64,000 nt of DNA from Callorhinchus milii (taxonomy: Eukaryota), in the NCBI RefSeq assembly GCF_018977255.1, contig NW_024704742.1:130450001-130514000 (forward strand). Direction: 5' to 3'. Below, piece after piece: positions 36,035 to 62,754 of this stretch. A program made the translations under genes and the position numbers. The notes under the pieces are model-generated. The model worked only from the letters and a program-made list of their open reading frames with translations, did not search any database and was not told the origin of the DNA. How positions within the stretch are numbered: position 1 is the first letter of the stretch; each line of letters begins with the position of its first letter.

Positions 36035-36110
36035 ACATGCAGATCTTCCAGCATCTTCACTCTGCTATGTTGGTGGTCTATTGGATTCTGTCATCAAGAT
36101 GGGAAAAGAG
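36035..36110 (+). CDS. NOL6: NOL6 exon 15
   Basis: HADLPASSLCYVGGLLDSVIKMGKE. Confidence 0.93.
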
Positions 36111-37056
36111 GTTAGTTTGGTTAACTTAATGGTTGAATAACGTAGTTAGGAGAGAGAGTCTTCTAAAAGGGAGAGGTGGGGGTGGTGTCTCATGAGTCTG
36201 GCAATGGATGCCATAAATATAAAACTATAGGAGAGAATGATGAAGGGGTATTTCCACGGCTGTAGTAACATTATCTTCCTACGGGTGGCACTGCTGAACT
36301 GATGGCTGGTTGTACAGCTCCTCCTTACAATACTTTCTGGTAAGCTCTGCAGCACTCCCAGCAGGTTGTTAGTGGTATTGCGGGGGATAAACTAACATAG
36401 GAATTAGGAGCAGGAAGGAGTAGGCCATTCGGCCCCTCGAGCCTGCCCCGCCATTCAATAAGATCATGGTTGATCTTCTAACCTAACTCCATCTGCCCGC
36501 CTTATCCCCATATCCCTTAATCCCTCTATCCTTTAGTAGGATACTAGCTCCTGTTAACCCTGCAAGCCAAAGCCCTAACGGGTAGGGTCATCCTAGCTGG
36601 ACAAACAGCGGGAAAGCCACAGTGATCAATGGCAAGCTATGCCTTTTTTGCTGGTTGGACTCCAGCAATACCCCAATGTGCACACTTGAGTCTCCAAGCC
36701 TTGGCTCTTGCCAACATGCGCCTAATCCTCTCTGGAATTAGATAAGAGTACCATATCAATTGCAAGGATTATTATTATACTATAATACTTGCAAAGAGAA
36801 AGATTCTCTTTGGTGACTTTTTTGAGATGAGAAAGCTATTAATTAGTCTTTCAAATAAAAAAAAGTGAAACATTTTATGTGTCCAAGTGCTTCACAGGAT
36901 GTTTTGTAAAGTATAGTGACTGAGTATGTTGTAGATAAAATCCTGTTGTCTTAAGAGAACATATAATTCTATTGAAAGCACGATTTCCCTGATTAAGTGT
37001 GTGTTTACTATTATTATTAAAATTATAATTACTAAAATTATTATTCACTGTCACAG

Positions 37057-37197
37057 CCGGCAGGGTCTGGAGAGGAGGAGAACGTCCGGGTGGTAAAGTC
37101 GTACGACGACCTGAGTCGAAAGCTCTGGAACCTTAATGGACTTCCTCTGACAATCACTTCGGTCCAAGGCACACATCCTGTATTCCGATACACAGAT
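37057..37197 (+). CDS. NOL6: NOL6 exon 16
   Basis: PAGSGEEENVRVVKSYDDLSRKLWNLNGLPLTITSVQGTHPVFRYTD. Confidence 0.95.
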
Positions 37198-37913
37198 GTA
37201 AGTCACCTTTTCTTAACATCTCCTAGAGTAATGCTGATCGGCTTGGCTCAGGAACTGGACTGTTGAGAGCGCCACAGGGGTTGACTTGATTGTGACATTC
37301 TGTTGCTGAACATGTTGCAGCCGGCTCAGCTCCCAGAAGGTCCCCTTACCTCCCTACTCCCTCCCCCCCCCCCCGAGGTAAGCAGGTAAGAAGTCAAAAC
37401 GACCAATTAGTTGTTTTGGCAACTAGTTCGTCACTTGACTTCTTAGCAGCACAGTGGCCCCGTCGAGTCGCTCAGCACCGAGAGTACTTTGAACAGGCAG
37501 AAATGGCAAAGCTTCAAGGCTCTTGTAGTGTAGCTCAAAGTATGTGTGGTGCACGAGGTCCTGTCTGTCTGTTTGGGTGGATGTTAAAGATCCTGTGATT
37601 CTGACCGAAAAGAGAAGGCGGCTTCTCCCGATGTCCTGGCCAACAATTCTCCAGATAAAATTGTCTGTTCACTTTTTGGGCGGTTTGCAGGACATTGCTG
37701 TAGGCAAATTGAATGTCGAGATCGCCTGGCAATTAGACACTCTCTATGCTTTACGGAACTTTGTGAAGTACGGTTGGGCTCTTTGAGATGTTATTGACTG
37801 TATAGGCGCTGTATCAAATCTAAAGATTACTATTATATGCTACAATCTCATAGTTTTACAGCTGTAATACATTCCTCTTTTAAACGACCTCCCTCTCAAT
37901 TTTGTTTTTGTAG

Positions 37914-38031
37914 GTTTTCCCTGCGTTGCCGATAAAACCGGATATTTCTTTCTACGTAAAGGATAAGAAGAGTAATTGCTTGCTCCCTTCTGTTGACAAG
38001 CCATGTCCTGCATATGTCCCGGCACTGAAAG
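37914..38031 (+). CDS. NOL6: NOL6 exon 17
   Basis: VFPALPIKPDISFYVKDKKSNCLLPSVDKPCPAYVPALK. Confidence 0.95.
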
Positions 38032-38921
38032 GTAAAGGTTACTTTAACAGCTGGAAATGCACAGCAGCTGCACACAGCACTCACACGAGAAGCTTTCAGG
38101 CTTCAAGCGCTCTGAGGTGCTGCCCCATGTGAAGGGCACTATATAATTGCATGTTGTTGTTGAGAAAGATAGGCTAATGTTTCAGAAGCATTCAGAAGCA
38201 CCAGAAATGTCTCTTTCTGTGTCAGGTGCTGACCGGATGATGTGAATTTACTCTCTCTTCCACTTTTATTTCAGAAGTTCAAAGTTGAATTGATTTTTTT
38301 TCCCTCTAGTCTGTTGATCTTTTAGCTGTCTTGTTGACATACAGTGCAGTCTTGTTTTGTCTGTTTTTGCTCATGAAGGCGGGTACCCTGTGGACATGCT
38401 GATGATGTCACTTCCAGCAACAGTAGCAGGAAGTGCCGTCAATGGTGATCTGATGATCTGGAAGCTGACCATTTTGTAGTATAGGAAGCTACCTGTCTTT
38501 TGTGTGCATGCGAGATGCATACAGAAGCGGTCTCCCCCCTCCCACCCCCATTATAAGGCTGATTTGGATATAATGTGGTTCTACTGCATTTGCTGTTGAT
38601 GCACATAGATTTTCTGTTCTGAGAAACCAAAGATAGAGTACGACTGTGCTTAAAGTAGATTTTCTAAAAGGATGAGATCCAATGGGCCTTCTTTATCCAA
38701 ACCAATCTTGTGTTTGTGACTGGACCACAAATTCCTTTAGTGAGAAACTTATGGTGGGTCTGAACCAGGCAGTCTGAAGGAGGGTCTGAAATTTGTGAGG
38801 TTGTGTCATTAACATTCTGTCCATTTGCATCCACTGTGTTTTTCTGAAGGCAGTTCTACAATATTGAATAATCTAATGATCGAAAACTACATTTAAAAAA
38901 ATTATCTTCTCAATCACATAG

Positions 38922-39076
38922 TTATATGTCATATGGAAGGAAGTGGAAAATGGCCTCAGGAGAAAGATGCTCTAAAACGGATCAAAGCAGCATTTCACAT
39001 CAGACTGTCTGAGCTGCTTCATCAACAGCATCACCTAACCTGCCAACCTTCAGTCACTCACCTTGATGTGTATAAG
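38922..39076 (+). CDS. NOL6: NOL6 exon 18
   Basis: VICHMEGSGKWPQEKDALKRIKAAFHIRLSELL...THLDVYK. Confidence 0.96.
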
Positions 39077-39169
39077 GTATGTCCCGTGTACAAGGCTGAC
39101 CATCACAAGTCTAAACGAGGGAAGGGGATGGGGGATTGGTATAACCATTAGATTTTACCTTGGATGGCT

Positions 39170-39495
39170 GCCCCATTGTAGTGGTAGAGCTGGAGCTCAC
39201 AGGTTCGAATCCTAGTTTGAATTGTTTTGCTGGTTTGGCCAGCCTGTGTGGGGACATAAAATCGACTGCAGCTTTCCAGGGATACTGCTGTTCATCCCTC
39301 CTCAGCATCCTCTACTGATTGTGCACGTGTGTGGCAGCTGGGTGAAGAGAGGTCAGGTTTGTTCTTGACACCCTCTATAGTCGAATGGCCTTTCAGCATT
39401 CACTACCAAGGCTTGCACATTAGCGATGCTCACTTGGGCTGGGTAGCGGAGGGCAGCCAGCGCTTGAGGAACTGAACCTCAGGGAGAGGAGGCCA
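39170..39495 (+). mobile_element. Old SINE resembling the AmnSINE2 type
   Basis: B-box GGTTCGAATCC head and ..gggtgaagagaggtcagg..tcgaatggcc..cactaccaaggcttgcacat..cacttggg body; related copies near 23030-23260 (-), 28400-28625 (+) and 59020-59140. Family name is from memory. Confidence 0.45.
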
Positions 39496-39860
39496 GACGA
39501 CGAGAAGAGAGGCACACACGCTAATGGGAAGGGAATTAGAAAAATAATTGAGGACACATTAAATGCTATATATAAACACGTTTAGACAAAAATTATAGAT
39601 GGCATTAGTTTTGTAATTAAGAAATGATTGATTGTTGTACATATGGTTTACAATTTACACTTATGTAGCGCCTTTAATGTCAGGAAGACGTACCAAAGCA
39701 CATACATAATGGTATCTGGCTCCCGGAACTGCGGGGGTGGGGTTGGGGGGTGGAAAAGTACGGTCAAAACTTGTTATTTCCTGGTCTCGTATATCCTTGT
39801 GGCTTTAATCCACTGTGTAATCCTCTTCTTTGTTGATGGTTCCCTGTCTGCTCTCTTCAG

Positions 39861-40024
39861 GATGGTTATGTTTTCCGAGTGCAAGTGGCCTACCACAGGG
39901 AGCCTGTCGTTCTGAAGGAAATCCGAACGCCGGAAGGTTTATTGAAGAGTCAGGACACCAAGGAGTCCCTGCAGCTGGAGCTGGAAACCATTCATCTCCC
40001 GTATCTGACCAGCACACTGCACGG
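39861..40024 (+). CDS. NOL6: NOL6 exon 19
   Basis: DGYVFRVQVAYHREPVVLKEIRTPEGLLKSQDTKESLQLELETIHLPYLTSTLH(G). Confidence 0.96.
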
Positions 40025-41783
40025 GTAAGGGAGGGACACTGTGCCTCCTGTCATAAGAGCTGGTCCAACACTGAACTTCTTCACCTCACCAGAAGTGAAT
40101 TATATGAATGATAAAACACAAACACAATACAAATAATACCAACACAAACGATAGAAATACTACAAATAATGCAAATGTAATACATTTATATAGGGTTTAC
40201 ATTTATATAGCGCTGGGCTGCGTGGGGACATCAAATTGGCTCCGGCAGGTGGCTGTCCCAAGGCGCTGGACAGTTATGGCTTGTCACCTGGACTTGGGTG
40301 GTGGAAGCTGAGCGGGGAGGGGAAAGATGACCGAAAGCACTGTAGGTTTTGAGATGGACCTTGAACAAAGTGAACAAAACAAGTGAAGGAGCAAGTCAGA
40401 GGGACTCCGGGATGAAGTTCCGGAGAGCGGGGACAGATAAGCTGAAAGCACAGTCGTTGATGGTAGGGCAGAGAGATATGAAGCCGGCCAAGTGTTCTCT
40501 GAGCAACTTGATTAAAAGTATATTATGAATAATGCATAATAATAAATAACATATAGGAGTAAATGACGATGCAATATTGCAATATAAATATGTACCCACC
40601 CTCCAGTAGACGCACACAAAACCCAATCACTTCTGATGCATTAATTCCACATTCTCAGAACCCTTTTGTGAATCCAAGAATCTTCACTGCGCAGAACAGC
40701 AGGAGAGCTCATTGTGCTTATACTGGTGCTCGCTCTCCCACTGGAGCAATCAGATCTAATCCCATTTCCCTGCTCCCCTTTCCCTTTATTATTAATACAG
40801 TGAACTCCTGATACTAAAGCACTGTCTAATATCATCACATGGCTTATTATATCACCGTGCTGTCTATATCCCAGCTGCTTTCCATGTAAACTGTGAATAA
40901 GGCCCCACCCCCTTATTTAGTCACTCTGCTCGAAAGGTATAAAGTCACATTCCATACATCCCCGTGAGTAAAATATCAGATATATCATCGAAGCAAACTT
41001 GCCTGTACCACGAGAAAATGTTGCTAAGCTGCCCAGCGAAACGGGAAATATATAGAAAACGGAGAACTGTAATTGTAAGCCAATATTAATTGCTGAAGGT
41101 GGGGTGGCACTCAGAAGGTTAAACTAACTTAGTTTTCATTTTCAATCCACGACTGTTTGTGGGACATTGCTGTGCGCAATTGGCTGCCGCGTTCGCCCAC
41201 AAATATACAGTCAATTCACTTTACAGTGTGTTCTGTGAAGCGCTTTGGGACGTCCTCCCGACGTGAAAAGCGCTATATCAAATGCAAGGATTATTATTAT
41301 ATTAGCCCAAAGAGCTAATTGCAGAAATTACTATTATTCTTATGCATCTGCAAAAGTGAGAGAAAATGCCTTTGTAGTATAGGACCTGGATAGAATGTGT
41401 CATAAACCTTCGAAGGAAGTGACTGAAAATCTAAATCAGTGACAAACATAGCGTGAAATGACAAGTGTTAAATATTCATTGCATTTGCTGCCTATTTAGC
41501 TGGTACGTGATAACAAGGTATAACATAAAAACTGTGCAGTATGTATTGCTGTCTTCCTGGCCACCACACCCTCTAGTGGCCCTGGAGGACTCATGCCTAC
41601 ATAGTCACCTGGATGTATAGTTACTGAGCTCTTTTACCTGGGAGTGACGATTTATTAAGAGTTAACTGTATTTACCCAGAAGAAGAAATGTTTTGTGTTT
41701 TAAGCTTTCACATCACAGTGGGCACTCAGTATGCTTTACTGCCTGTGTATTAACATGGTCCACCCCTGATCTGTGTGTCCTAG

Positions 41784-41936
41784 GCTACAGCAGCAGCATT
41801 CTGCCTACAGCGGAACCTGCAGGCTTGCCAAACGGTGGATCAGCGCCCAGCTGCTCAGCGATGACATCGGTGAGGAGAGCATCGACCTCCTTTCGGCCCA
41901 CCTCTTTCTGCAGCCGGCCCCTCACTCACCACCTGC
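41784..41936 (+). CDS. NOL6: NOL6 exon 20
   Basis: LQQQHSAYSGTCRLAKRWISAQLLSDDIGEESIDLLSAHLFLQPAPHSPP(A). Confidence 0.96.
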
Positions 41937-42689
41937 GTAAGGACCCGCTTTAACTTGGTGGGGCGGGAGGGGGGCTTCATTGGACACAGACCCAAATACA
42001 GACTACAGTAAACCCCCATCTCCGGGTTAGGAGAAATTATTTCATACACAGAGCAGTTAGGGTATGGAGTTTTGATGGTGCTTACGGTCACCTCCACCCT
42101 CCCTCTCCCCCCGGCTCATTGTCAGACTCTGCCACTGTCAAGCACTCCGGGACGCTACCCCATGTGAAGGGCGTTATAGAAATGCAAGTTGCTGTTGGGA
42201 ATGCCCTGCAGGGAGCGGTGGTAGAGGCAGAATCCATATTGGTTTTCAAGTGGAGACTAGATTTAAAGAAATCAACTACAGGGAGTATGGGGAAAAGGTA
42301 GGTAAATGGATTGCTCTTAAAGGAGCCAGCACAGACACGATGGGCCTAATGTGCTTTGTGCTGTATATTTCTGAGGTTCTAGATGAGGATGTTACAGAGC
42401 GTTTTGGTGGTTCTATTAACCGTTATTCTGGTAGAATGCAATTGGCGGTTTGAGTCCTGTGAAACATGTGCCTTTTCCAAAGCAAAGTCTTTCAGCTTTG
42501 CCAACAGCAGGTGGCAGGTACAGCTGGTGTCACACCTGTAGCTGTAAGGAACCTAGAGGTTGTTGACTGAAAGAGCAAAGCAGGTGAATGAATCTTCTCA
42601 TTTTTGCTGTTTGTTCCGTTGTTACGATTATAGGAAGGTGAGCGAGTAAAGTTCTTTTTCATACCTTTAAAGCTTTATGCAGGTGTCTC

Positions 42690-43085
42690 TCTGGCTCTGT
42701 CGGTAGCTCCCACCTCTGAGTCAGAAGGTTGTGGGTTCAAGTCCCACATCGGGACTTTGAGCTCACAGTCTAGCGTGACACTTCAATGCAGTTCCAGATA
42801 GCTAGGTCTGCACTACATTGTCAGACATGCTGTCCTTCAGACAAGACATTAAACCGAGGCTCCGTTTGCCAGTTTTGGGTCGATGTTGAAGATTGGATAG
42901 CGCGATTCAAAAAGAGAAGGGAATTCTGGCCAACAATCCCCCAGAAAAAATGTCATTCACTATGCACTTCATGGCTGTTTGTGTGCAAATTGGCTGCTGC
43001 GTTTGCAGTAAAATACCGTGAAGCTCTTTGAGATGTTATGGCAAAGTGTTATGGTTCTATTCCAAGTGCAAGCATTATTATATTA
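42690..43085 (+). mobile_element. Deu-domain-type SINE
   Basis: tRNA-like head (..TCTGAGTCAGAAGGTTGTGGGTTCAAGTCCC..), Deu-like core (..TTAAACCGAGGCTCCGT..AAAAGAGAAGGG..CTGGCCAACA) and L2-like tail. Many other copies in the window (e.g. ~805-1050, 13690-13975, 16350-16750, 23265-23670, 31640-32110, 51165-51480). Confidence 0.7.
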
Positions 43086-43124
43086 CAATTTGCTTTTTTC
43101 CCCTGTTATCTGATTTCTGTTTAG

Positions 43125-43222
43125 ATGTCCTCAAGTGGGCTTCCTTCGGTTTCTAAATCTCTTGTCGACGTTCGATTGGAAGAATAACCCGCTCATTGTG
43201 AACCTGAATTATGACCTAAAAG
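43125..43222 (+). CDS. NOL6: NOL6 exon 21 (last visible exon)
   Basis: CPQVGFLRFLNLLSTFDWKNNPLIVNLNYDLK; donor AAG|gtgagg. Confidence 0.96.
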
Positions 43223-43286
43223 GTGAGGGCTGAACTGAACCCCAATAATATGTTCATCCAGGCTTGACAAGAGTTTCTCCTGGTGT

Positions 43287-43311
43287 NNNNNNNNNNNNNN
43301 NNNNNNNNNNN
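43287..43311. other. Assembly gap (25 N)
   Basis: Run of N flanked by SINE fragments in opposite orientations. Confidence 0.99.
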
Positions 43312-45069
43312 TTGCCCTGTTGGGAATTGAACCCAGGTCTCTCTGCTTATGAGGCGAATGCTCTAACCACTGAGCTACTGGACTCTAAATGCAACAATTA
43401 TGATTATTACACTGTATTAGCTTGGCTCTTAGCATGCTCACTTCTGGGAGAAAAGGGTGTGAGTTCAATGTGGATTTAATATCATAATCCAGTTGTATAC
43501 ACTGCAGCCCACTAATGGAGAATGGAGAGCTGCCCTTCAGATGAAACATTAAACCACGGTCTCCACTGCATCATGGCTGCTATTCAATAGAGAAAGGAGT
43601 GTCTACCCAAGATAAATCGTTTTGAGATCTTTATAACTTATATAGGAGAGTTCTTTCCTTCAAAATACTTTCTTCCTGGACGTGATGCCTCCGTCTCTTA
43701 GAGGTGAGTCCTCAGTCCACAGGGCACAGCCTGGCACAGTAAAATTCCCCACAGTGAGTCAGTGCCAGGCTTTGCCGTGGTCGTTTAATATATGGAGGCA
43801 CGAGCTGACACCAACAGGAAATAAACTTTGCTTTGGCTCTGAGACAATGAGCTCTGAAAAGGAGAAGTCTCACAGAATATATTGTAAAGTGGATTTATTT
43901 ATTTATTTATGAAGCAGAATATATTGAATATATACAAAAATATAAGAATATATTAAGTAGATGTATTTACTTTTTGTTTATCGGTTTGTTTATTTTTTTA
44001 TTTATTTATGAAACAGCATCTGGTTCAGTGGCTTCTTCCCTCCAACATTCTCCTCCTCTCAGTCTCTGCTACTGCTTCACTTTACAAAGATTTACAGAGA
44101 ATGTACAGGACGGAAACAGGTCAATCAGACCAACCAGTCCCTGCCAGTGTTTATACTCCACACAAGTCTTCACCCATTCCTTACTCCTTCCATACCCTTC
44201 TATTCACCTCTCCCTCGTGTGAAGTGACATGTGATAAGCTATGAACTGTTTTATGTTGATTTCCCTGATAGAAACAAAATTGGTTATTCTCATTATGATC
44301 AGCATTTTCTCCTGAAGACACTTCTTTAGGCAAACTGTGCTAAATATTGTACAGCCCTCTCGACTTGAAAGGCACTTTCCAAATTGAAGGATTATTATTA
44401 TTGTATATCAATAACATTCTAAAATATTTTATTTGTAGATTAATTTAGGAGGACAGGGGGACAGCACTTGTACTGGGAAATCTTCCAAAAAATCGAGTCA
44501 TTTAAAGAGTTTGAGTAATAAGCAATCCTGTTTCAGCGCTTTGGAACGTCCTCCCCGACGTGAAAGGAGCTCTATAAATGTAATTTTGTTGTTGTTGTTG
44601 TACAAACTATTAAAGTTGTGTCTGGCGTATTACGTGTAATATTAGTATTGATTCAGGTAAATCCCTATGCTGCCACTGCCTTTTAGTCCTTATTAACGAT
44701 GCAGATCTTTGTGTTTTATTCTTATCATTTAAGGATTAGTTAATGTTGTAATGCCTTTAGAAAGATTAATTATGTAGGATATTTCTTCCAACCCTAGATT
44801 TATCTTTCCCTGTGTCCAGATGAGCTTTTGGTTACAAATTGGAATTTTTTTTTTTGACACACGCGGAAACCATCACTGTGCTTCAAGTCCAAACCAAACT
44901 GAGAGTTTCACGCATCCCACTTACACATGGAGATTCCCAAGATATTTATCGAAAAAGAATGCTCATTCTCTCCCTGAAAGGAAGCATCCTGCTTAACTAA
45001 TCCTGGAGACTATTAGGTGAAGGTTGGCAAGAGCCAAGGCCTGGGGACCCCAGAGTGTGTGTCTTCACT

Positions 45070-46025
45070 CTAGAAGACACAACAAGTCTGCCAAGAAAAG
45101 AGATGCACCAAGGGGATAAGGACAGGGAGCAACTTAGGGAAATTTTCATTATTAGAGAATTGGTGCTAGGGAAACTGTTAGCACTAAAAAGTGACAAATC
45201 CCCTGGACCGGATGGCTTGGATCCCAGGGTCTATTTGGACTTCCAGAAGGCATTTGATAAGGTGCCACATAAAAGGTTAGTCCAAAAGATAAGGGCCCAT
45301 GGAATTGGGGGGAGCATATTAACGTGGATTGGGGAATGGTTAACGGGTAGGAAACAAGGAGTAGGGATAAACGGGGTCCTTTTCAGATTGGCGGGATGTG
45401 ACTACTGGAGTGCCACAAGGATCAGTTCTTGAGCCTCAGCTATTTACCATCTACATCAACGATCTAGATGAGGACATTGAAGTTAATATAGCTAAATTCG
45501 CGGATGACACAAAACTAGGAGGAAGTGTCAACACAGAGGACGACATTAAAAAAAATGCAGCGAGACATAGATAGGTTAGGTGATTGGGCAGGTAGGTGGC
45601 CAGATGAAGTATAATGTAGGGAAGTGCGAAGTCATCCAACTAGGTAGCCAAAAACAGTAGAGCGGGTTATTTTTTGAATGGGAGAGATTGGAATGTGTTA
45701 GTGTCCAGAGGGACTGGGTGTCCATGTACACCAATCACAGAAAGTTAGTCTGCAGATGCCAGCAGCAATTAGGAAGGCAAACGGTATGTTAGCATTCATT
45801 ATGAAAGGATTAGAGTATAAGAGTAGGGAAGTCTTGCTGTAACTGTATAGGCCTGGTGAGACCACACCTGGAATACTGTGTGCAGTTTTTGGTCTCCTTA
45901 TTTAAGGAAGGATGTACTTGCCTTGGAGGGGGTGCAGCGTAGATTTACTAGGTTAGTACCAGGGATGAAGGGGATGAGTTACGAGGATAGGCTGACCATT
46001 TGGGCCTATATTCTCTAGAATATAG
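45070..46025 (+). mobile_element. CR1 LINE fragment
   Basis: [31 protein letters not shown] and later ORF2 motifs; internally deleted and frameshifted. Confidence 0.9.
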
Positions 46026-46284
<259 letters not shown>

Positions 46285-46309
46285 ATTGCATTTTTATAGG
46301 GTTTATATG

Positions 46310-46870
46310 AACTCCTTCCTTGTTGGCCTCGCCAAATCTTCCCTCCACAAGCTGCAAATCATTCAGAACTCTCTCCTGCACCAGGCTCTGTGACCCCATC
46401 ACCCCCACCCTCGCCCGACTCCACTGGTTCCCCATCAATCAGTGGATAGAATTCAAAATCCTCGTCCTCACTTTCAAGGCCCTCCATGGCCTTGCCCCCC
46501 CTACATCTCTGACCTGATGACCCCTTATCAACCTGTCTGCTCCCTCTGCCAGGTCTCCAGGTCTCCCGCCTGACCCGGGACCTGACCCATCAGTGGCCAG
46601 GCTTTCAGTCTCTCTGTCTCTCTGTTCCCGCTCTTTGGAACTCTATCCCACAATCCCTTACCTCACTCCCTCTCTTGCCTCCTTCAATGCACGACTCAAG
46701 ACCCTCGTTTTTGACTATGCCTTCAGCCGCCCTCCTACTCCCTCAGCCCTCCCTCATCCCAACCCTGCCCCCCCCCCCCCATGCTCGGGTCATGATCACT
46801 GACTGTTGAGCACCTTGGGGCGTCCTCCCTACGTGAAATGTGCTTTACAAATGTAATTTTGTTGTTATTG
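46310..46870 (+). mobile_element. L2 LINE 3' fragment
   Basis: DPITPTLARLHWFPINQWIEFKILVLTFKALHGLAP plus tail. Confidence 0.85.
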
Positions 46871-47698: not shown

Positions 47699-48148
47699 GT
47701 TTCAGCATCAAGAATGTCCGTCTAGACAAATGCATCCATGCAAACAATGAGAGCATCAGAGTATCTCTGGCTGACTGCAACCCAGAATCTGAGCACCAGC
47801 ATTGGAGATGGGACTTCCGCACAAAGTCCATCATCAGTCTTGCCACAAAGTGGTGCCTGATGGTGCTTAAAGCAAAAGAGTTGGGGCACGTCAGACTGGG
47901 GCCCTGTGGCAACGGTCAACCTCAAGCATGGGCCTGCAGCAAACGGGGTCACTTAACTCTAGAAGGTTTCAGCTTACACCTCAACGTAAGGCACAGGACA
48001 CACAAAATGTACGTGTCGAGTGAAAAAGGCAAATCGAGCAAATGGAGAACTATGAAAGAAAAGTCTATCTGTGGTGAAGCCAACCATGACACACACCAAC
48101 AAGAGAGTCCTCTCGAGGTGACGGTCTCAGAGCTACGTCAGACGGAAA
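47699..48148 (+). CDS. Ricin-B/cysteine-rich beta-trefoil exon of an OSTbeta-like membrane protein
   Basis: GFSIKNVRLDKCIHA..LADCNPESEHQHWRWD..SIISLATKWCL..LGPCGNGQPQAWACS..SKWRT..SICG. QxW repeats and Cys spacing as in mannose-receptor CysR domains; tgtag|GT and GAAA|gtaaga, phase 1-1. Confidence 0.85.
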
Positions 48149-50526
48149 GTAAGATCTACCTAACTCTGGCATTCAGAAGACCAAATGCCTGATTATTTGT
48201 AGGCTTAACATAGAGAATCTCAATCAACTCACGTAACCCTCATCCATCTTTCAGCTGTAGAAACCTTCACAGTCACATCTAGTAGAATAGAAATACTGTA
48301 GTTCAATTGTATTTGTTTTGCCTGTGCTTTTAAATTAACTTCACAGATTGGGTTTACAGATATTAACTTCAAGGCACTGTGACCATCAAGCTTTTTCTCC
48401 CCTGCTCTTTAGATTAGATAACGTAGCCAAGAATAAGTCTGTAAGTGTTGAAATGATTCTTGATGATTTGCATCTATAATAATAATCCTTGCATTTGATA
48501 TAGCGCTTTTTACATCTTCTAGACGTCCCAAAGCGCTTCACAGAATATACTGTAAAGTGAATTGACTGTATATTTGTTGGCGAACGTGGCAGCCAATTGT
48601 GCACAGCAGTGTCCCACAAACAGTCATGGATTGAAAATGACCAATTTATTATTGTTTTGTTTTTTTGGAGGGATTATTAGTTACAGAAAGCATTGGTTAT
48701 TCAATTGTTACTTTGAAGGACCCAAGGAATAGAGAAAAAGTGGTTTTAAATAGGTTTTGTGAGATAAAAGGATAACTTTGTTTTGCATTTTTACTCAGAT
48801 CTTTCCTGTTGTGTAACATTTTACTGATGAAAGGATAGCCAGCCATTTGATGCGTCCAGCTGTGTGACCACTGGGCAACATTGTCACCTGAGTGACTCCC
48901 CTGATTTTTCTCTCCCTCCTTGAAGGCAACCAGCTTAGCCTGGCTCTGCGTGCCTGAGATCACAAGTTTTCAAGTTTTCAAACACCAACTTGCATTTATC
49001 TAGCGTCCTTCATGCAGGATAGTGTTTCGGTCCACTTGACAGTGGCGGAGCACAACACCGAAGGCACGGTGGAAGAGGAAAATCTTAACCATTGAAGGCA
49101 TGATCTGAAAATAGGGAAGGACGGGGCAAGATGGAGGGAGGAAGGGGCAGGGTGGAGGGAGGAGGGGGCAAGTTCAATAAGCAATCATAGATTCAGGGCC
49201 CGTTCTTACAACAGCAACAACAATAACAGCAAATTACATTTGCATAGCGCCTTTCACGTCGAAGGACAACCCAAGGCACTGGACAGTCAGGGAATTGCAC
49301 CCGAGCAGTGGAGTGGGATTGGGAGGGTGGAGGGCAGGGAGAGTAGGAGGGTGACCAAAGGCGCGGTCAAAGAGGAGGGTCTTAAGATGGGCGTTGAAGG
49401 AGGCAAGGGAGAGAGGGAGGCGAAGGGACCCATAAATGACATCGTGCAGCCTTACAGTCCCTCACGGGGCAAGTCAGCTGTTTGTTAGTTCAGTGCTCGT
49501 GTTAGTGACTTGACTGTAAATGTGCTTGAATATTCAGAGCAGTAATGCAGACTAGTCTTGCAGCGATTACTGGTGCACGGAAGAGCAACCACAACAGCAG
49601 CCCTTTCTCTAGAGATAGAGGTACTTTGAGATTCTTTCTTCCAAGTCTGGATCTGTTAACGGCATCGCAATTTCGGTGCAAAACGAACCAGACTGCGGAT
49701 ATTTTGTCTTTTGTTTTTGTTTGGTGGCTATGGCTAATTTGAAAGGTTCTTTATTACTTTGTTAGATTCTTTGTCCCACTTTTGGTGTTGCTATGGAGTA
49801 AGCACATTCTTGTGGTGTATTTCTCCTTCCCAGCTGCTCTATTTATTGAAAGGGTTTATGCAAAGAATAAATTGGACCTTTAACCCTTGGAGAGCTGGAC
49901 TGACGATTTAGAAATGAAGAACATTTCAATACATTTCACAGCAAATCCTGCAGAGAGCTCTGAGACATCATCCTTACAATCAATCCACTTCCTTCCTTCA
50001 TTTCACTTGGTAAATCCACATCTATTTGTGGGGTACTGCTGTGAGCAATTGACTGCTGCGTTTCGCCCACAAAATAAACAATCAATTCATTTTACACTAT
50101 ATTTTGTGACAGTAAGTTGTATGGCTTTCGTGAAATCGCAATCAGTGTTCACTCGCCACCACCACCACCCACCCCACCCCCCACCTTTAGTGAATATCAC
50201 GAACAAGATCCCTGTATAAAACAAAATACTGCAGCTGCTGGAAGATCCCTTTAGAAATGGGTTCTGGAAATCGAGGAGATTGAGGATGTGCCGGGAGGGC
50301 AAGTATCTAGGGTCAAGAACCATCAACAAGGCACGGACATATCGACTATGTTGGGCTTTTCTAATACTTTTTGTCTAACCTTTTGTGGTTGTTATTACTG
50401 ACTCGCTCATCCCATTTAGTTGTATCATTTTATGAAGACATTTTTGGGTCGATTCTCATTACTTTTACATCAGAACCTGATAGGTACCAAGGAATATGAG
50501 TCGATTGTTAGCTCTTTGATTTCCAG

Positions 50527-50688
50527 GTTCTCTCGCCGATGTTTCAGAAGCCCAGACAAGACAAACTGAACAATCAACCCAAATTTCTAGGACAAGTGCC
50601 GCATCTTACACCACCTACCCTGTTTTTGAAGTCATCACATCAGCAAGAGAACATGATAGAACCGTGAGGATCACCAGGACGGACGATG
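50527..50688 (+). CDS. Ser/Thr-rich stalk exon of the same gene
   Basis: SSLADVSEAQTRQTEQSTQISRTSAASYTTYPVFEVITSAREHDRTVRITRTDD(G); ttccag| and ATG|gtaagt; phase 1-1, open. Confidence 0.75.
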
Positions 50689-51545
50689 GTAAGTCAGGAG
50701 GTATTGTGGTGAGAATGATGTTCTTTTTAAGATCCATGTCAGGACTTTGAAGTCACATTCTCGACTCGGACACTCCAGTGCATTGCTGGAGAAACATAGT
50801 CCTGCTGCCTGTTCAGGTGGACAGTAAAGATCCTAAGACACTATTTGAAAAGAGAAGGGAGGTTTTTCTCCTTATCTTCACCGGATAAATTTGTGTTTTC
50901 AAGGCTTTATTTATTTAATTTATTTAACAAAGGAGAATAGCCAACAAATTGCTTATGTGAAGCTTACAAAAGAATACCAAATCTCAGGTTCACTTCTCCT
51001 GAACTCTAAGATTCCCAACTCACAGCTAATAGCCGTCAGAATAAGAATAAAGTTATCTGTAAATTAAGGACGGTTTCAGATGATATCTATTGATTATATA
51101 AATCTCCTTCCTGCGTGTCCCTGCTGGTCAGATTGTAATTTGTATTTTAACTTTGTTTATGACAATAAGAATCCTTGTATTTGATTTAGCGCCTTTCATG
51201 TTGTGAGGACATCATGAAAAATGTTTTTATCCATTTCAATAGACAAACTTGGCAGCCAATTTGCACACAGCAATGTCCCATATACAGCCCTGAAGTGAGT
51301 GACCAATTTTATTTGTGAGATGTTAGCCAAGATACTGAGAGAAACTAATTTCACTTTTCAAATCATGGCATGGGATCTTTAACGTCTACCTGAATAGGCA
51401 AACCGCACCTTGATTTAATGTTTAATCTGAAGGACGGCACCTCCAACAGCTCACACCCAGCACTGCACTGGAGTGTTGTCCCAATAGATAATTCCTAAAA
51501 TCCTGTGTGAATTACTGATACTAATTACTATCTCTGTCCTTTAAG

Positions 51546-51636
51546 GCTCTACCTGGAAAATTGCCATGCTGATTCTGGGTTTTATAGCACTGATTCTGGG
51601 ACTAATCATATTGACACTGAACATCATTCACAATAA
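51546..51636 (+). CDS. Transmembrane exon, OSTbeta (SLC51B)-like
   Basis: GSTWKIAMLILGFIALILGLIILTLNIIHN(K); ttaag| and AA|gtaagt; phase 1-2. Confidence 0.8.
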
Positions 51637-51869
51637 GTAAGTGTGAATTTTAGTCTTCTGTATTCCTCTTCACACAAAGGGTTCAGTTATAGAGATTAGG
51701 TTCAAGGATTCATTCAACAGTAGTTAAAATGGCTTTGTTTCCCAGATACCAGATAAGTAAATACTACACAATTTGTCTGTTACAAAATCTAAAGCATTAA
51801 TCAAATATTTCTGTAAGATTGGCCTTACTCTCTTGCCTCTGTATCGGAATGCTATAAGTTCAGCTGAAT

Positions 51870-52590
51870 CATAGAATCATACAGCACAGAAAGAGGCCGT
51901 TTGGTTCATCGCGTCTGCGCCGGCTACGAAAAGAGCAATTCAACTCAATCCCACTGGTCCGCTTTCTCTCCATAGACTACAATCTTGTCCTCCCCAAATA
52001 CCCATCTACTTCTCTCTTAAAAGTTGTTATTGAATCGGCTTCCACTACTCTTTCAGGTAATGCATTCCAGATCCGAACAACTCGCTGGGTGAAAAATGTT
52101 TTCCTAACCTCCCCTCTGTTTCTATTAACAACTACCTTAAATCAGTGTCCTCAGGTTACTGACCCACATGCCAGTGGAAACAGTTTTTCTTGATTTAACC
52201 TATCAAATCCTCTCACGATCTTGAAAATCTCTATTAAATCGCCTCTTAATCTTCTCTAATCTAGGGAGAATAATCCTAGTTTTGCTAACCTGACCTCATA
52301 ACTTATTCCTGGTACCATCCTGGTAAACCACCAGCTTTTTATAAATATTCAACATAACCTCCTGAGTTTTGAATTCTATGCCTCTATTTATAAAACCTAG
52401 TATCCCATATGCTTTTTTAACAGCTTTATCTACCTGTCCTGCCACCTTGAGAGATTTGCTTATGTGGCCCCCCAGGTCTCTCTGCTCATTTACCCCCTTT
52501 AAGATTGTGCCATCCTCATTCTTCCTACCAAAATGCAACACTTCGCATTTCTCCACATTAAACTTCATCTGCCACGTTTCTGCCAATGTC
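51870..52590 (-). mobile_element. CR1 LINE 3' fragment
   Basis: WQMKFNVEKCEVLHFGRKN..QVDKAVKKAYGILGFINRGIE; CR1 3' end with ATTCT-type repeats. Confidence 0.88.
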
Positions 52591-52904
52591 GAGGCTTGAG
52601 CTCCTAGTCCAGGTTGACACTCTGGGGCAGAACTGGGGGAGCACTGAATTGAGGGACATGCTGGTTTTCGGACGAGGTCAAATATTATTCTTCACGCATC
52701 CATCTATCTATTCCGTTTTTGTAAAAAAAAGCAATCGTACATTTATATTCAGGACTTAATAAATACCCAGTCAAACCAATACAGTATATTCTGCGTAGCT
52801 CTTTGAGACATCTGAACAAGTGATAGGGCGCTATATCAAATGCAAGGATTATTATTAGAATACCATATTAATTCTGTTGGTCAGAAATTCGCTTCTGGTG
52901 TGAA

Positions 52905-54812
52905 GAAACCTAAACTTCTTCACACTCAACTCCCCTCCTCTTTCCCCCTGCTGGCCAACGCGGTCAACCACTCTCTCTCCTCAGGCTCTTTTCCACACTC
53001 CCTGAAAACCGCTGTCATCACACCCCTCCTCAAAAAATCCACCATTGATCCCTGTAATCTCTCACACTACCGTCCCAGTTCCAACCTACTCTTCCTTGCC
53101 AAAGTCCTGGAATGCATTGTTGCAGGTCAACTTCAGTCACAACTCTCCATCCATTCCCTTCTCGAGCTCCTGCAGTCTGGTTTTTGCTCTGCCCACAGCA
53201 CAGAGATAGCGCTTTTCAAAGTCACAAACCGACGTCCTCTCTATCTGTGACCAGGGATCCCTCTGCCTCCTCACGCTGCTACGGCACTACCTCACCCCTC
53301 ACGCTGCTGAAACCCTGGTTCACGCCTTTGTCACCTCAAGGCTGGACTATGGGAACTCTCTCTTCGCCGGCCTTCCTGCCACCTCCCTCCACAAGCTGCA
53401 GGTCATTCAGAACTCTGCAGCTCGTGTACTGTCCCGCACCAGGCTTCGGGACCACATCACACCCATCCTCGCTCGCCTCCACTGGCTCCCCATCCCCCAG
53501 AGGATTGATTTCAAGATCCTCATCCTCACCTACAAGGCCATTCACGGCCTTGCTCCCTCCTACCTCTCTGACCTACTATCCCCCTACCTACCTGCCCGTA
53601 CCCTCCGTTCCTCCGGCTCCTGTCTGCTCCACGTCCCCCGCCCCAATCGCCCTACCATCGGTGGTCGGGCCTTCAGCCTCTCAGCCCCTAGGCTCTGGAA
53701 CTCCATCCCCCAGTGCCTTCGCCTTGCTTCCTCCCTCTCCTCCTTCAAGGCCGGTCTCAAAACCTTTCTCTTTGACCGAGCCTTCAGCTCCCCTCTCGAC
53801 TCTCTTCCCCCTCCTCGCTCCCTCCCTTCCCTCCCCTCACCCTGACCATTTCCCCCCTCCTCGCTCCCTCCCTTCCCTCCCCTCGCCCTGACCATTTCCC
53901 CCTGCTCGGGTCATGACCCAACTGTGCAGCGCCTTGGGACGTCCTCCTGACGTGAAAGGCGCTTTATAAATGGAATCTTGTTGTTGTTGTCCTCCTGGAT
54001 CTCTCTGCCACGTTCGACACAGTCGACCATGCCATCCTCCTCCACCATCTGTCCTCTCTCATCCACCTTAGTGGAACTGGACCACACTTACATGGTTCGA
54101 GTTCTACTTAACCAAGCGCCTCCATTTCATCTCGGCAAATGCTTTCTCCTCCTATCCCCGCCCGATCACCTATGGGGTACCCCAGGGCCCCATCCTTGAC
54201 CCTTTTCTTTTCCTTATCTATATGCTCCCTCTGGGCGATGTCATCTGCAGACACAGGGTAAACTTCCACATGTGTGCGTGCGGATGACACACAAATCTAC
54301 TTTGCCTCCTCCAGTACCAACTCCAGGTCAGCCAATGTGCTATCAGCTTGTCTGGCAGACAGCAGGTTGAGTGTAAACTTCCTGCAGCTGAATATGGACC
54401 GGACAGAAGCCATATACCTTGGTTCCCATTAACATCTTCATTCCTGCGGATCTGAACTCCCCAACCTCCCTGGGCTCTTCCTCAGACTCACCGAACCAGT
54501 GCGCAATCTAGGCGTCCGGTTCGACCTCCAGCTGTCCTTCCTCCCCCACATATGGTCCCTGACCAAGACCACCTTCTTCCACCTCTGCCTCCGACCGTAC
54601 CTTACCCCAAATGCAGCCGAAACCCTTGTACATGGTTTTGTCACCTCCAGCCTGGATTACTCAAACACACTCCTCGCTGGTCTCCCCAACTCCACTATTC
54701 ATTCAGAACTCTGCCGCCTGCATTCTTACCCAGACCAAACTCTGTACCCACATCTCACCAGTTCTGGTCAGGCTCCACCAGTGGAGGGTGCTATATAAGT
54801 GCAAGTTGTTGT
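52905..54812 (+). mobile_element. Old L2 RT fragment with a younger L2 3' fragment nested at ~53272-53989
   Basis: KTAVITPLLKK..QSGF..HSTE..ICDQGSLCLL | insert | VLLDLSATFDTVDH continues after the (TGT)n tail of the insert. Confidence 0.85.
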
Positions 54813-56117
54813 AAAGGTAGGGAGAAAAACACTTTCAAGAGAGAGGAGTTTTTTTAAAAAATTGCAACTGTAAATTTTATTTATCAGTCTGTTTGTGTTT
54901 GATCCAATGTCATGGGAACATGAATGGAGCCTTTTCAGCACCTTTGTTCCACCCAGAACTGTCCAGTATACAATCAGAATTAAAGGTCATTCCTATTGTT
55001 CTGGAGACATTTCAGGATCTCGTGGAACTTGCACAAAGAAGCAGTTCATTTCTGCTTTACCCACTCCGAGTGAGGACTGGAACTCTTCCAGAGACAGAAT
55101 AAGCCTGATCTCTGTGAGTGGAATTGAATCAAAGGAAGTCAGAGAGAAATATCATCAGCATTTTGCCAAGCAGTGGGAGGAAGGGCATGTGAATGTGAGG
55201 ACATTTTGTGATGTTTTCTCCCATCTACTCCTGCCCCTCTGTAAACTCATTGTGTTCAAGAGGTTGAAAACCAATTAATTCACCAGGATGGGTGAACTAT
55301 AATACATAGAAAGTCAAGGTGGGAGATTTGTACAGCACTGACAGGTATTAAGAAGGAGTCGATCATCACTGGTGAGGTTTGCAAGCAAATATGGTTCCCA
55401 TATTCAAGAAAGATGAGAGAGCCATACCTGGTAACTACAGACTAGTACAGACCCAAAAGATTGGTCTCAATAATTGGAAAACTGATGAGTCAATCAAAAA
55501 GAGGAAGATTACTTGGATAAAAATAATCTAATACATTTTATAGCCAGTATGGGTTCAAAAATGGGAGACCAGTCCTGTAGACTTTTTTGATGAGGTGAAA
55601 TCCCAAATTTACACTGCAAAGCCATCTGATTTAGTGCATCTAGACTTCCAAAAGACAATTGTCAAGCCACCACATAAGAGGCTCTTTCACAAATTGATGT
55701 CACTGGGCATTAAAGGTAAGACATGGACATGAATTCCAAAATTGCCCGAAGGGAGGAAAGCAGAGAGTAGTTATTAGGGGAATTAGGTGAAAATGGGCAG
55801 ATGTATGCCTCATACGTTTGTACTGGGATACCTACCTGTTCCTTTTATAAATTAATGACCTAGATTTGCAGACTCAGTGCAAGGTATTTACATTTGCAGC
55901 TGACGCCAAGTTGGTGGGAAGGTGGGGGTGGGGGGACTCTGTATGCAAAGTATTAAAAGATTAAACATTTAAAATCTGGGCATAATCTTTTTTAAACAAT
56001 GTAATTGTTTTCTAGAGCGAATGATGAATCTTTATGGCAGTGACCGCAGATGAACCAAATAAGGGGTTCACCGTCATGCAACAAAGCCTCACTAACAAAC
56101 ATGTTTATTTTGATCAG

Positions 56118-56310
56118 GAAAAGGAAGATGTTAAACATCACAGAGATCGCTGACTCAGGAGATGAAAAAACATCCTTGACAACCAGTCTGAAACTTCAGC
56201 ACAATAAATCTCGTTCCCCATCGTTAAGACATGGGGAAATAATGATCGAATGGAAGGACGGCAAGATAACGCCACTGTTTGATAATAACAATTACTGCAG
56301 TGGCTATTAG
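56118..56310 (+). CDS. Last coding exon (cytoplasmic tail) of the OSTbeta-like gene
   Basis: ttttgatcag|G, phase 2 completes AAG; KRKMLNITEIADSGDEKTSLTTSLKLQHNKSRSPSLRHGEIMIEWKDGKITPLFDNNNYCSGY*; basic stop-transfer residues follow the TM. Confidence 0.8.
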
Positions 56311-59300
56311 TATGTTAGGTGTGTGTGGTTGCTGCAGTGCACTATAAGAATACACCTGGCAACTCTGAAGGAACTATCGCTGATCGAGTATGTATGTGTG
56401 GGCGGGGATGGTGATCAGAGACCCCAAATTTTTAATCTACTTGAGCTTTATGCCCGTTTGTCATGTTTGAAAAATCTTAAGAACTGCGGAAATTCAGCCT
56501 CCAAATTAAGACTGAATTTAAGAAATTTCCAAAATGTTTTGCACAGTTCCAGATTTTAAGGCAATGGTGTTACTGTTAGAACTATGAAGCTTTTTAGATT
56601 TTTTTCGTCTTCAAATGTAGAATCTCTACTGCCACCCTGAGTGAGACTAGCTAACTCAGCCAAAACAGCATTAGCAAGTGAGACTTTTTTTATGGCTCAG
56701 CTACTCACTGGGAAGACTCACTGAGACATTGCGGGAGTTATTTTTGATACTCAGTAACATGATAAAATGGTAAAAGAAAATTGCAATGACTGGAAAATAG
56801 GATAGTAAGCCTGTTTTAGAAATTTGTGTTTGAAACACAAACTTATTATGCCTTTACTCCACAACTTTACATTATTGTTTGTACTCTCTTCCCCCCNACC
56901 ACCACCCAACCCCCTCACAACAGTTATGTCACATGTCAACTTGGCTCACGTGGTAGCACTCCTGCCTCTGAGCCAGAAAGTTGTGAGTTCAAGCTCTAAA
57001 AACTGTAGTCGGACTTGCCTTGTGTTAATATAGTGATTAAGGTATGCACTTGACAAGAGCATAAGCATTTTGCAAATATTACATAGTACAAAACAGCACT
57101 CCAGAGACTCATTCCATACTTAGTGATAGAGTGCCTGATCGCAAATTCAGAAATCTTTCTGAAGCATCTTTTGTCCTTCAATTAGGTATTTTCCAAAACT
57201 ACAATAGCCAAAAGATTTTGTAATGGATTAGAAACGGATCTAACCGTTCATTCTCCTCTCCTATAGACATAAAGCTGGATATTTTCATAGAAATTGAGAT
57301 AGGTGCTACTTTTTTTTAAAAAAATAAAACTGATCACACTGACAAATTGCAGTCCTGAGCATGACACAAGTCAGCTGCAGTTTGAGCCACTCACTATCTA
57401 CATTGCCACAATCTGTTTTGGTGCACTCACGAGTTAGAACGCATAATGGGACCCTATGAGTTGAATGTCGATCCTCCTGGACTAGAATTTCTATAATTTC
57501 ATTATTCTGGAACTAAATTATCCTTACTCCCTCATCTCACTTGGGAGACTAAACAAAATTGTCGAAGTATGAGGGAGATCTATCAATATTGTCAATTAAG
57601 TGAGAAAGGGGAATAAGGGAATAGTGGGGTATGAGGGGGGGTTGGGGGGGGTCATGTAATGTATACACACCGGTATGGACTAGTAGTCTGAATGGCCAGA
57701 ATGCTGTACATTCTGTGTATTCTATGATTCACTAACTCATTGAGAAGGGCCTGAACTGAAGAATCAATCTGTAACATTTGACAATGGCTTTTACGTAGCA
57801 TTTAAGAGGATTAATTGCATGTAGATGTGTGCCTGGATAACTCTCTGGGTTCTGAGATTAATCTCCAGTATCTGTTTGGGATATTCATTGATTGAACATT
57901 TGCTTCTCTTATTCATATTCCAATAGTTTTCTTCTATTTCTCAAACCCATAATGTGCAAAATGAGCTTCGGGAGACTCATAAAACGTATCATTAGGACAT
58001 GATTCGTTTTACAAAAAGGTGAACTGAGAATATGGTAAAAACCGTTGACCTCTGTATTAAATGTACCGTTCATTAAAGAAGCAATCTTACGTAGGCTCTG
58101 TTATTTGTCATTCTGCCATTTTAAGAAATTCTTAGTTTAATAACACACAAGCAAAACCAGTCATTCAGTTAATGAGTTTCCTGTCTGTACGCATTTCTTT
58201 CTCAACCATTCTGTGTATGTGTGTGTACATAATAATAATTTGACACTCAATCCACGATTGTGCACAATTGGCTGCTGCGTTTCGTCCACAAAATATACAG
58301 TCAATTCACTTTACAGCATATTCTGTGAAGCGCTTTGAGACGTCGAGAAGACGCGAAAAGCACTATATCAAATGCAAGGATTATTATGATTATATATCAA
58401 ATGCAAGGATTATTTTTATTATTATTATTGCATCTCAGCAGCAACTTCATGACCCAAAAGTCAACCAATTCAGTTTTTCACTTTAAAAAAAAGGCAAAAG
58501 TTCATTTGCTTCAGGTTGCCGCCAATGTCTCTGTTATGCTTGTGTGTAAAAAAATAGGAAATGACATTGCAGTAACCCGATGAGCCGTAAGTCCGGCATT
58601 TTGTCTTTTAGCAAGGGACTTGGCCAGCAGCTGTTCTGGTTGCACACAAATACATTCAAACCCGCCATCGTTCCTTGCTATAAAGTGGGTTGGGATTTTA
58701 TGGATCCCAAACATCCTGGTATATCGAAGCTGCAGTGTAATAAATAATTGTTGCATTTGATATGGGGCCTTATTGCACTAAGAGCTTTACAATTTTCTGT
58801 ACAGTGTAGTGACTGGATTTTACAGGCAAATACAGCCAAGAAACGAATGACCAATTAATCTGGGGACTGTTGATCAGGACACAGGGAAAAATTCCCTTCT
58901 GTTTTCAAACACTATGGAACTTTTAACATCCCATTTCTGACGACAAGAACTTGTGTTTAATGTCTCATCTAAAAGACAGGACATCCAACAATGCAGTACT
59001 CCCACAAAACTACATTCCAGTGAAAGCTTAGACTTCCATCCACCCTAATTACTGTGTATCCCTCCCCTAGTGCTTGCTGCTACACCCAGCAGAGCATGGA
59101 TGATTGAACAAAGATTGGATCAGGCACAATTTTGATTCTCCCCCACACATAGTAATAATCCTTGCATTTGATATAGGCCTTATAATGTAATTGAGACATC
59201 TCAAAGTGCTTCACAGAATACACTGTGAAGTGAATTGACTATATGTTTTGTGGGCAACACGCGGCAGTCAATTGCGCACAGCAGTGTCCCAGAAATAGTC

Positions 59301-61683: not shown

Positions 61684-61997
61684 TTACTTAATTGTGGAGA
61701 TGAATTGATGAGCTTCTTTCAGGAGATTCTGCAGATCTTGATATTTAGCTAACTTACAGGCCTCATCCACTTTTAACCATTGAAATGCTTGATGCTCATG
61801 AGACAGTTTTACTTCTGTGTTATAGTCCTTCAGCTCTGCCAGCCAATAGATAACAGTTTTGGGCTTTTCCTTTACTTTGTAGGTTAACACTTTCTTGTAC
61901 CCATCAAGCACATGAAACTCTTCAGCTTTCAATCCTGCTTCTTCCTCTGTTTCACGAAGTGCGGTTTGAAAATCATCCTCTCCTGGATCAACGTGAC
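61684..61997 (-). CDS. NUDT2: NUDT2 (asymmetrical Ap4A hydrolase) last coding exon
   Basis: Acceptor ttttctcttaag|GT; Nudix box GHVDPGEDDFQTALRETEEEAGL followed by KPKTVIYWLAE..LSHEHQAFQWL..TIK*. The first coding exon was not found in the window. Confidence 0.95.
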
Positions 61998-62754
61998 CTT
62001 AAGAGAAAAAGGGGGAGACCTTTAAGCTCTGTCAATGCATAAACGCAAGTTGTTGTTGTCAGTGGGCAATTTTAACAGTGAAAAATTGTGGTGTAAAAAC
62101 TGAAAAAAAACAATCTGTACAGTTAAATCAATAGATTATTTGAACACTTAGAAAGTGATTTTTTGGGTGATCAGCTGGATGTCCGACATGCACCCATCAC
62201 CGTGCATCCCACCTACACATGGAAATGCATCCCACCTACACATGGAAATCTCAGGGATAGATTGTTGGAATGGAATGCACACTCTCTCCCTGGAGGGACG
62301 CATCCTGGTTACCTGATTCCAGAAAATGTTAGGGACAGGTTGCCAAGGCTTGGGGACCCCAGAGTGTGTGTTGGAACTGCTGGAGTCTAACCAGCTAAAA
62401 ATGCATAGCTTGCCATTGATATTGCTGTCTGGTAAGCTTTCCCGCTGCTTGTACAGCTAGCACCACTCTACCCGTTAGGGCTTTGTTTTGCAGGCTTAAC
62501 AGGAGCGGAGTGGGATGACTCCCTGACCCCAGTGACTGGGGTGACTGCCCTTACAGGTCCTACCGATGAGCCAAGGCTATGATTGGACCATAAAAAAGGC
62601 ATCAATTACATCAAGTAATTGGTTTAATACAATTATCATTGGGTACCCTAATTCGGGGAGGTGCTCAATTCCCAAAAAAGGAGCATCATGTGCTCGCAGT
62701 CGCTATTTTTCAACCCGATGATAACAAAGATACGTGCTCTGACTATTAATGAGT

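Follow-up and report, generated by a model that had tools for sequence, protein, structure and literature searches.

Here we describe LOC103180987 of Callorhinchus milii, a real, expressed, annotated but uncharacterised paralogue of OSTbeta (SLC51B), which lies in a stretch of 64,000 nucleotides (nt) of contig NW_024704742.1 (positions 130,450,001-130,514,000, forward strand; hereafter referred to as the window). The protein is composed, in order, of a signal peptide, a mannose-receptor-type beta-trefoil, a stalk, one transmembrane (TM) helix and a tail. On the evidence of the sequence, its TM helix and tail are very probably homologous to OSTbeta. To our knowledge, descriptions of OSTbeta come from mammals, in which it is a small helper with a single TM pass and no relatives; the results below make it a two-member family in which a lectin-capped long form is widespread and probably original. 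The parts of the gene are distributed over the window and an unplaced contig, C79, as follows.

7464 to at least 7800 of C79: exon of the 5' untranslated region.
7289-7229 of C79, minus strand: coding part of the signal-peptide exon (61 nt, phase 1).
47699-48148 of the window, plus strand: exon with the beta-trefoil of the cysteine-rich (CysR) type (ricin-B fold), six conserved Cys and the start of the stalk (450 nt, phase 1-1).
50527-50688, plus strand: Ser/Thr-rich stalk exon, poorly conserved, ending at the acidic pair before the TM (162 nt, phase 1-1).
51546-51636, plus strand: TM exon with the invariant Trp, the OSTbeta-like helix and the start of the basic stop-transfer cluster (91 nt, phase 1-2).
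56118-56310, plus strand: last coding exon with the cytoplasmic tail, a GEIxIEWKDG-type motif and the stop codon (193 nt, phase 2-stop).
56311-56896, plus strand: 3' untranslated region, of at least this extent (transcript contigs of runs X2 and X3 reach 56896).

The four window exons are bounded by AG/GT and splice, in the phases given by the first-pass annotation of this DNA (1-1, 1-1, 1-2 and 2-stop), into a single open frame that encodes 297 residues ahead of its stop codon, without internal stops. This frame contains one hydrophobic stretch, together with the TM and tail motifs that the annotation had quoted. The annotation had thus joined its four exons correctly and missed the first coding exon, the signal-peptide exon on C79. 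The first window exon is 100% identical to LOC103180987 (318 residues), and a sequence search with it gave nine matches, all of about 295-318 residues, including two shark records named si:dkey-245n4.2; LOC103180987 is the orthologue of zebrafish si:dkey-245n4.2. From the hydrophobic stretch and the signal exon, we infer an N-out topology; basic residues follow the single TM.

The proposed linkage of the ricin exon to the TM exons is borne out by public transcript contigs. Joint 1 was recovered as GT..AG in three of four public runs and joints 2 and 3 in all four (two studies, transcript-like contigs). The runs are presumed to be RNA, none being recorded as such, and were picked for holding the lectin exon; they show splicing, not level or tissue, and the basis for splicing is the spliced joints themselves rather than the run labels. 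Three contigs (1085, 1936 and 1639 nt) carry the signal exon with a loose end that is the start of the lectin exon, and their lengths match those of the junction contigs. Run X4 holds one contig that joins the signal exon to the lectin exon and another, of low depth, that joins it directly to the stalk exon, skipping the lectin exon in frame. LOC103180987 may therefore also yield a short, lectin-skipped form. Some gene models (P0036 and, by eye, P0083) fuse a LOC103180987-type gene to an arrestin-domain-like protein, probably by annotation read-through from a neighbour.

The assignment of the TM and tail to OSTbeta held in Pfam, where P0001, the spliced RefSeq protein, reaches 36.6 bits against the OSTbeta profile (PF15048; cut-off 27). 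The Trp that starts the TM is kept in all 50 aligned rows and aligns with human Trp36 via shark SLC51B, it is preceded by an acidic pair at the same spacing as in human OSTbeta, and the helix displays the OSTbeta-type pattern of invariant Trp, Met, Gly and Leu. Human OSTbeta (PF15048; 9LJG, 9UNV) likewise has the acidic pair and invariant Trp at the start of its single TM, and a basic cluster after it. The conserved Trp-Asn at the TM start of OSTbeta reportedly has a functional role. Its Asn is replaced by Lys in LOC103180987, as in a teleost protein named slc51b, so that W-K for W-N is not supported as the distinguishing mark it was once taken for. Within the LOC103180987 clade (n=27), mean identity to LOC103180987 is 0.49 for the lectin, 0.14 for the stalk, 0.62 for the TM and 0.78 for the tail motif; the tail thus presents a cytoplasmic motif conserved across jawed vertebrates. 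With a tail-only profile of the clade (26 columns, no TM), 16 of 17 SLC51B-clade proteins exceeded the highest score among 1700 shuffles (6.0 bits), and none of 31 OSTalpha controls rose above 0 bits.

Several observations weigh against this homology. The 17 SLC51B rows were first retrieved with the LOC103180987-clade profile, which biases the tail test toward a positive. The Pfam OSTbeta cut-off is passed by only 4 of the 15 clade members tested: none of the eight other chondrichthyan sequences reaches it (below or absent in 8 of 9), and three of six further clade members fall below it or lack a match, the other three passing. The direct match of LOC103180987 to human OSTbeta is weak (E=0.83). 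Against a partnership with OSTalpha, the extracellular acidic dileucine EL20L21EE is reportedly required for human alpha-beta association (PMC4924846, cited, like other sources marked 'in part', from a portion of its text), and this ELLEE dileucine helix is absent from LOC103180987; it is absent too from shark proteins named SLC51B.

It is nevertheless very improbable that the OSTbeta likeness reflects generic TM hydrophobicity, or that the exons do not form one gene. Taken by itself, the TM exon matches OSTbeta at E=0.018, and Glycophorin_A also matches P0001 (24.7 bits), as chance likeness would have it. This explanation is largely refuted by the spliced contigs, which cover all exons, by the tail-only homology to the SLC51B clade and by the lectin exon common to long SLC51B proteins (horn shark SLC51B matches the window lectin exon at E=7.9e-6); the intron phases, which match those of C. 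milii SLC51B, also stand against it. The ESM Atlas gave leads only, with feature scores of at most 0.81 and an OSTB cluster as first structure row (TM-score 0.46). Elsewhere in the genome, a weak OSTbeta-like stretch with a stop inside (C13 13348674-13348787, E=2.37) is due to chance or is a decayed copy; neither it nor a match on C1 (E=7.86) was taken as a gene.

LOC103180987 and SLC51B fall into two clades. A profile search retrieved 166 representatives at E<=0.001, of which 150 were listed; 30 proteins were named, 29 of them from this list. A tree of TM and tail (53 rows selected by motif pattern, 77 columns, midpoint root; mammalian SLC51B and five SLC51B-like rows failing the motif pattern are not among the rows) separated 35 LOC103180987-clade rows from 18 SLC51B rows with split support of 100/99, and the horn shark is present in both. 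By this tree, LOC103180987 is a paralogue of OSTbeta and not the SLC51B orthologue. Named members of its clade or close relatives come from sharks, rays, coelacanth, lungfish, catfish, sturgeon, axolotl, caecilian, frogs, turtles, lizards, a snake and the marsupial Dromiciops; no bird or eutherian member occurs among the 30 named representatives, which are a partial sample. The Dromiciops protein, placed by sequence rather than synteny, speaks against the lack of a mammalian counterpart that the annotation had suggested for this syntenic position.

The true C. milii SLC51B lies on another contig (C26, 203765-206421), in a block with Ig/FN3, DPP8/9, BTB-Kelch and PDCD7 genes (7 match types among 75 open reading frames taken of 257); the DPP8-KBTBD13-PDCD7 block thus holds a different gene from LOC103180987. 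Its predicted gene model comprises 176 residues, with a signal, a stalk, a 94-nt phase 1-2 TM exon and a tail. Both genes share the layout of a phase-1 signal exon, a phase 1-1 stalk exon and a phase 1-2 TM exon (91 nt in LOC103180987), and the tail motif of LOC103180987 is also found in non-mammalian SLC51B. By contrast, human OSTbeta (128 residues) is without the signal peptide and trefoil of LOC103180987, which in turn lacks the ELLEE/WFFR helix of human OSTbeta and belongs to a separate clade and locus. The C. milii SLC51B model is without the ED..W juxtamembrane motif, and splicing of its TM exon depends on a weak donor site, 4 nt beyond a stronger one.

About 22 kb separate C. milii SLC51B from a UBAP1L-like frame, and about 50 kb separate LOC103180987 from a UBAP1-like one. 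The neighbours of the two genes suggest paralogous blocks, which we take to correspond to human 15q22 and 9p13, themselves paralogous. Against this, UBAP1 and UBAP1L match each other only weakly (E=0.003 over 24 residues), and some of the gene names are presumptive. The two genes probably go back to the early vertebrate genome duplications.

The first window exon matches Pfam Ricin_B_lectin at 40.8 bits (cut-off 29), and its closest solved relative in a sequence search is the cysteine-rich domain of the mannose receptor (MRC1; E=8e-10). A full-length AlphaFold model from nine sequences was unusable (predicted local distance difference test, pLDDT, 38.5); the lectin domain refolded with 85 rows reached a pLDDT of 94.2, and the top Foldseek matches of this trefoil model are mannose-receptor CysR domains (TM-score 0.85-0.89). 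Six Cys are kept in at least 90% of the 85 rows. The lectin domain is accordingly modelled as a mannose-receptor-type CysR beta-trefoil: it has the same six-Cys pattern as MRC1 CysR (PDB 1DQG), its best match in both sequence and fold, but unlike in MRC1, no fibronectin II or C-type lectin domains follow it. Pfam, the tree, the tail profile and these fold matches together sustain the original proposal of an OSTbeta-family paralogue with an extracellular trefoil.

The idea that the trefoil binds sulfated glycans in the manner of the mannose receptor fared less well. The sulfated-GalNAc pocket of that receptor is formed by Asn99, Asn102 and Trp117 (PMC2193177, in part), and LOC103180987 has Asn, His and Ser at these positions, thus lacking Asn102 and Trp117. 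Trp117 is missing from all 18 LOC103180987-clade rows and all 12 SLC51B rows, and is present in 5 of 9 outgroup rows; within the LOC103180987 clade, Asn102 occurs in 0 of 18 rows and Asn99 in 6 of 18. As aligned, a mannose-receptor-type sulfated-sugar site is not conserved in the clade. Some anion binding could still be possible, because much of the sulfate contact in the mannose receptor is made via main-chain NH groups. The trefoil is basic, with a net charge of +11 in LOC103180987 and of at least +5 in 14 of 18 clade rows versus 1 of 12 SLC51B rows.

This charge bears on a rival account, in which the protein would be an OSTbeta-derived orphan receptor or adhesion protein without a transporter partner, its basic trefoil binding an anionic ligand and its tail recruiting a sorting or signalling partner. 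We consider this possible, if on the unlikely side. Besides the charge, it accords with the strong conservation of lectin and tail motif in the clade, with the loss of the WFFR/ELLEE juxtamembrane helix and with the presence of the stickleback orthologue among genes differentially expressed in gill and brain (PMC13583502, in part). However, shark SLC51B is likewise without that helix, brain is also a reported site of OSTalpha-beta (PMC13346981), and the OSTbeta-type TM pattern exceeds what a plain anchor needs.

Contrary to what had been supposed, the lectin cap is not special to LOC103180987; the suggestion of long OSTbeta-like forms outside mammals proved right. Four of six proteins named OSTbeta or SLC51B in databases are long, at 283-332 residues (NXA79929, wren; XP_038275483, leatherback turtle; XP_043101286, tiger barb; XP_067874126, horn shark), and two are short (frog, 134 residues; smooth-hound, 188 residues). 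The four long entries are true SLC51B orthologues and, like LOC103180987, comprise a signal peptide, a CysR-type trefoil, a stalk, an OSTbeta TM and a WKDG-type tail. They differ in scoring 45-93 bits against OSTbeta and in their near-neutral trefoils, whereas the LOC103180987 clade combines a basic trefoil with a tail of its own type, SPSL..GEI. Ricin_B_lectin matches 6 of 10 SLC51B-clade proteins at E<=0.001, none over the cut-off. A search of the 100 kb surrounding C. milii SLC51B gave no lectin exon (best E=0.36 among 2582 open reading frames), while the same profile recovers the window lectin exon at 1.7e-23.

A single lectin-TM fusion that preceded the duplication, with several later losses of the symmetric phase 1-1 exon, would be the most economical history. 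The cap would then be ancestral and the short SLC51B forms probably derived by loss of the lectin exon. In a lectin-domain tree (39 rows), eight MRC1-like rows form a group supported at 95/84, and the wren row sits on a long branch in the wrong place; it counts against a single fusion that both OSTbeta clades are set against the outgroup at only 77/70. SLC51B studies in fish, reptiles and birds concern a much larger protein.

OSTalpha-beta is a dimer of heterodimers, each with a seven-TM core and one OSTbeta helix, that exports bile acids and steroid sulfates (PMC13346981). Two OSTalpha genes are present in the C. milii genome: P0187, on C4, scores 200 bits to human, and P0175, on C9, scores 122 bits. 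P0175, an OSTalpha-like protein of 310 residues (C9 8283738-8290179), has relatives in sharks, rays and lungfish. It is not as long as SLC51A and shows differences around the substrate site of human Arg241/Arg244; its substrates may therefore be others. Three more Solute_trans_a loci, on C1, C16 and C31, are presumably of the TMEM184 type.

We lean towards the reading that LOC103180987 is a second OSTalpha-family helper subunit. The TM face is conserved, the TM being much better kept than the stalk, and skate and human subunits complement each other at 25% OSTbeta identity (PMC4924846, in part); these two points make a helper role the best reading. The TM helix would pack on an OSTalpha core, that of the C9 OSTalpha-like protein or of canonical SLC51A, and, in the same way as OSTbeta, LOC103180987 would be needed for OSTalpha to mature and reach the cell surface. 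A cytoplasmic sorting or scaffold partner may bind the conserved tail motif, and the basic trefoil may bind an anionic extracellular ligand via a site unlike that of the mannose receptor; the trefoil could be spliced out. Against this candidate partnership, which we hold to be slightly more likely than not, stands the absence of the dileucine helix that human OSTbeta needs, though shark SLC51B lacks that helix as well. Lectin-exon skipping is known from the single low-depth contig of run X4.

A helper subunit for TMEM184 or another multi-pass protein, rather than for OSTalpha, is quite unlikely. The three further Solute_trans_a loci would provide candidates, and TMEM184 proteins are orphan relatives that share the OSTalpha fold (PMC13346981; PMC9333335, in part). 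Yet the texts consulted describe no beta subunit for TMEM184, and human TMEM184A-C exist although the partial sample of 30 named proteins includes no eutherian clade member. The OSTalpha-family partnership can be addressed directly, as two OSTbeta-family and two OSTalpha genes in one genome offer a 2 x 2 pairing test.

Extended further, and doubtful as a whole, the partnership would start from a lectin-capped, receptor-like OSTbeta of ancestral jawed vertebrates. Duplicated alongside OSTalpha, it would have given a second alpha/beta exporter pair (the C9 OSTalpha-like protein with LOC103180987), its location or activity tuned by an extracellular anionic ligand and by lectin-exon splicing; human OSTbeta would be a truncated remnant. 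More surprising than the single gene is what concerns the family as a whole: much of non-mammalian OSTbeta bears a lectin-fold cap, and there may be a second alpha/beta pair.

The surroundings of LOC103180987 are affected by an assembly error, and comprise the following features.

24718-43223, plus strand: NOL6 exons with Nrap domains (Pfam Nrap, Nrap_D4 and Nrap_D5 on three of four window exons tested).
46309/46310, no strand: assembly junction at which about 227 kb carried by C79 is missing (end overlap, repeat-frame continuity, transcript contigs joining exons).
61687-61998, minus strand: last coding exon of NUDT2, the convergent downstream neighbour (Pfam NUDIX, 56.7 bits).

The RefSeq signal peptide of LOC103180987 was not found within the 64-kb window; a pattern search located it once, on C79. 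Candidates for the signal exon inside the window were rejected, none matching the RefSeq N-terminus. One end of C79 (229,773 bp) overlaps window positions 43487-46310 at 98.2%, and the opposite end carries a repeat reading frame onward into window position 46310. The end overlap and repeat-frame continuity therefore indicate that about 227 kb was omitted at 46309/46310, just after a long GAAA repeat, and this misplacement is flagged here for the C. milii assembly. A 25-N gap at 43287-43311 truncates NOL6 ahead of its 3' exons, which a motif scan, an Nrap_D6 search and a listing of open reading frames did not find (one of these searches matched nowhere, so that this is no proof of absence). An A>G difference at L004:7270 in the signal exon, seen in two of four runs, would account for a Leu/Pro discrepancy of P0002 with P0001; it also suggests that RefSeq filled the signal exon from a transcript.

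On C79, a GH31 frame of 753 codons, which we take to be a MYORG-type gene, lies some 8 kb upstream of LOC103180987; C79 also carries zinc-finger/DZF and 3-PAP exons (4 of 49 open reading frames with matches), presumably of ZFR and MTMR12. With C79 placed at 46309/46310, NOL6 is therefore not the true neighbour: the location 'between NOL6 and NUDT2' describes the scaffold as assembled, and in truth the GH31 gene lies directly upstream. Downstream are NUDT2 (a name assigned from the sequence, the NUDIX domain itself being observed), a SAM-kinesin gene, a UBA-type gene and a DCAF12-domain gene; we assume the SAM-kinesin and UBA-type genes to be KIF24 and UBAP1, respectively.

A literature search found no description of a lectin-bearing OSTbeta, with the limit that alignments in supplements, such as S1 Fig of PMC4924846, might include long forms; the combined lectin and OSTbeta architecture is already displayed in domain databases. 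As the first-pass annotation had anticipated with 'annotated but uncharacterised', si:dkey-245n4.2/LOC103180987 was found only in paper tables. It is an entry, as dkey-245n4.2, in a zebrafish deletion list, beside aqp3a (PMC9210284, in part), and in a table of differential expression in stickleback gill and brain, with nol6 on the same chromosome (PMC13583502, in part). The stickleback orthologue is differentially expressed between marine fish and one lake population and has 146 fixation-index (FST) outlier single-nucleotide polymorphisms, which may reflect linkage with nol6 (PMC13583502 Table 1, in part).

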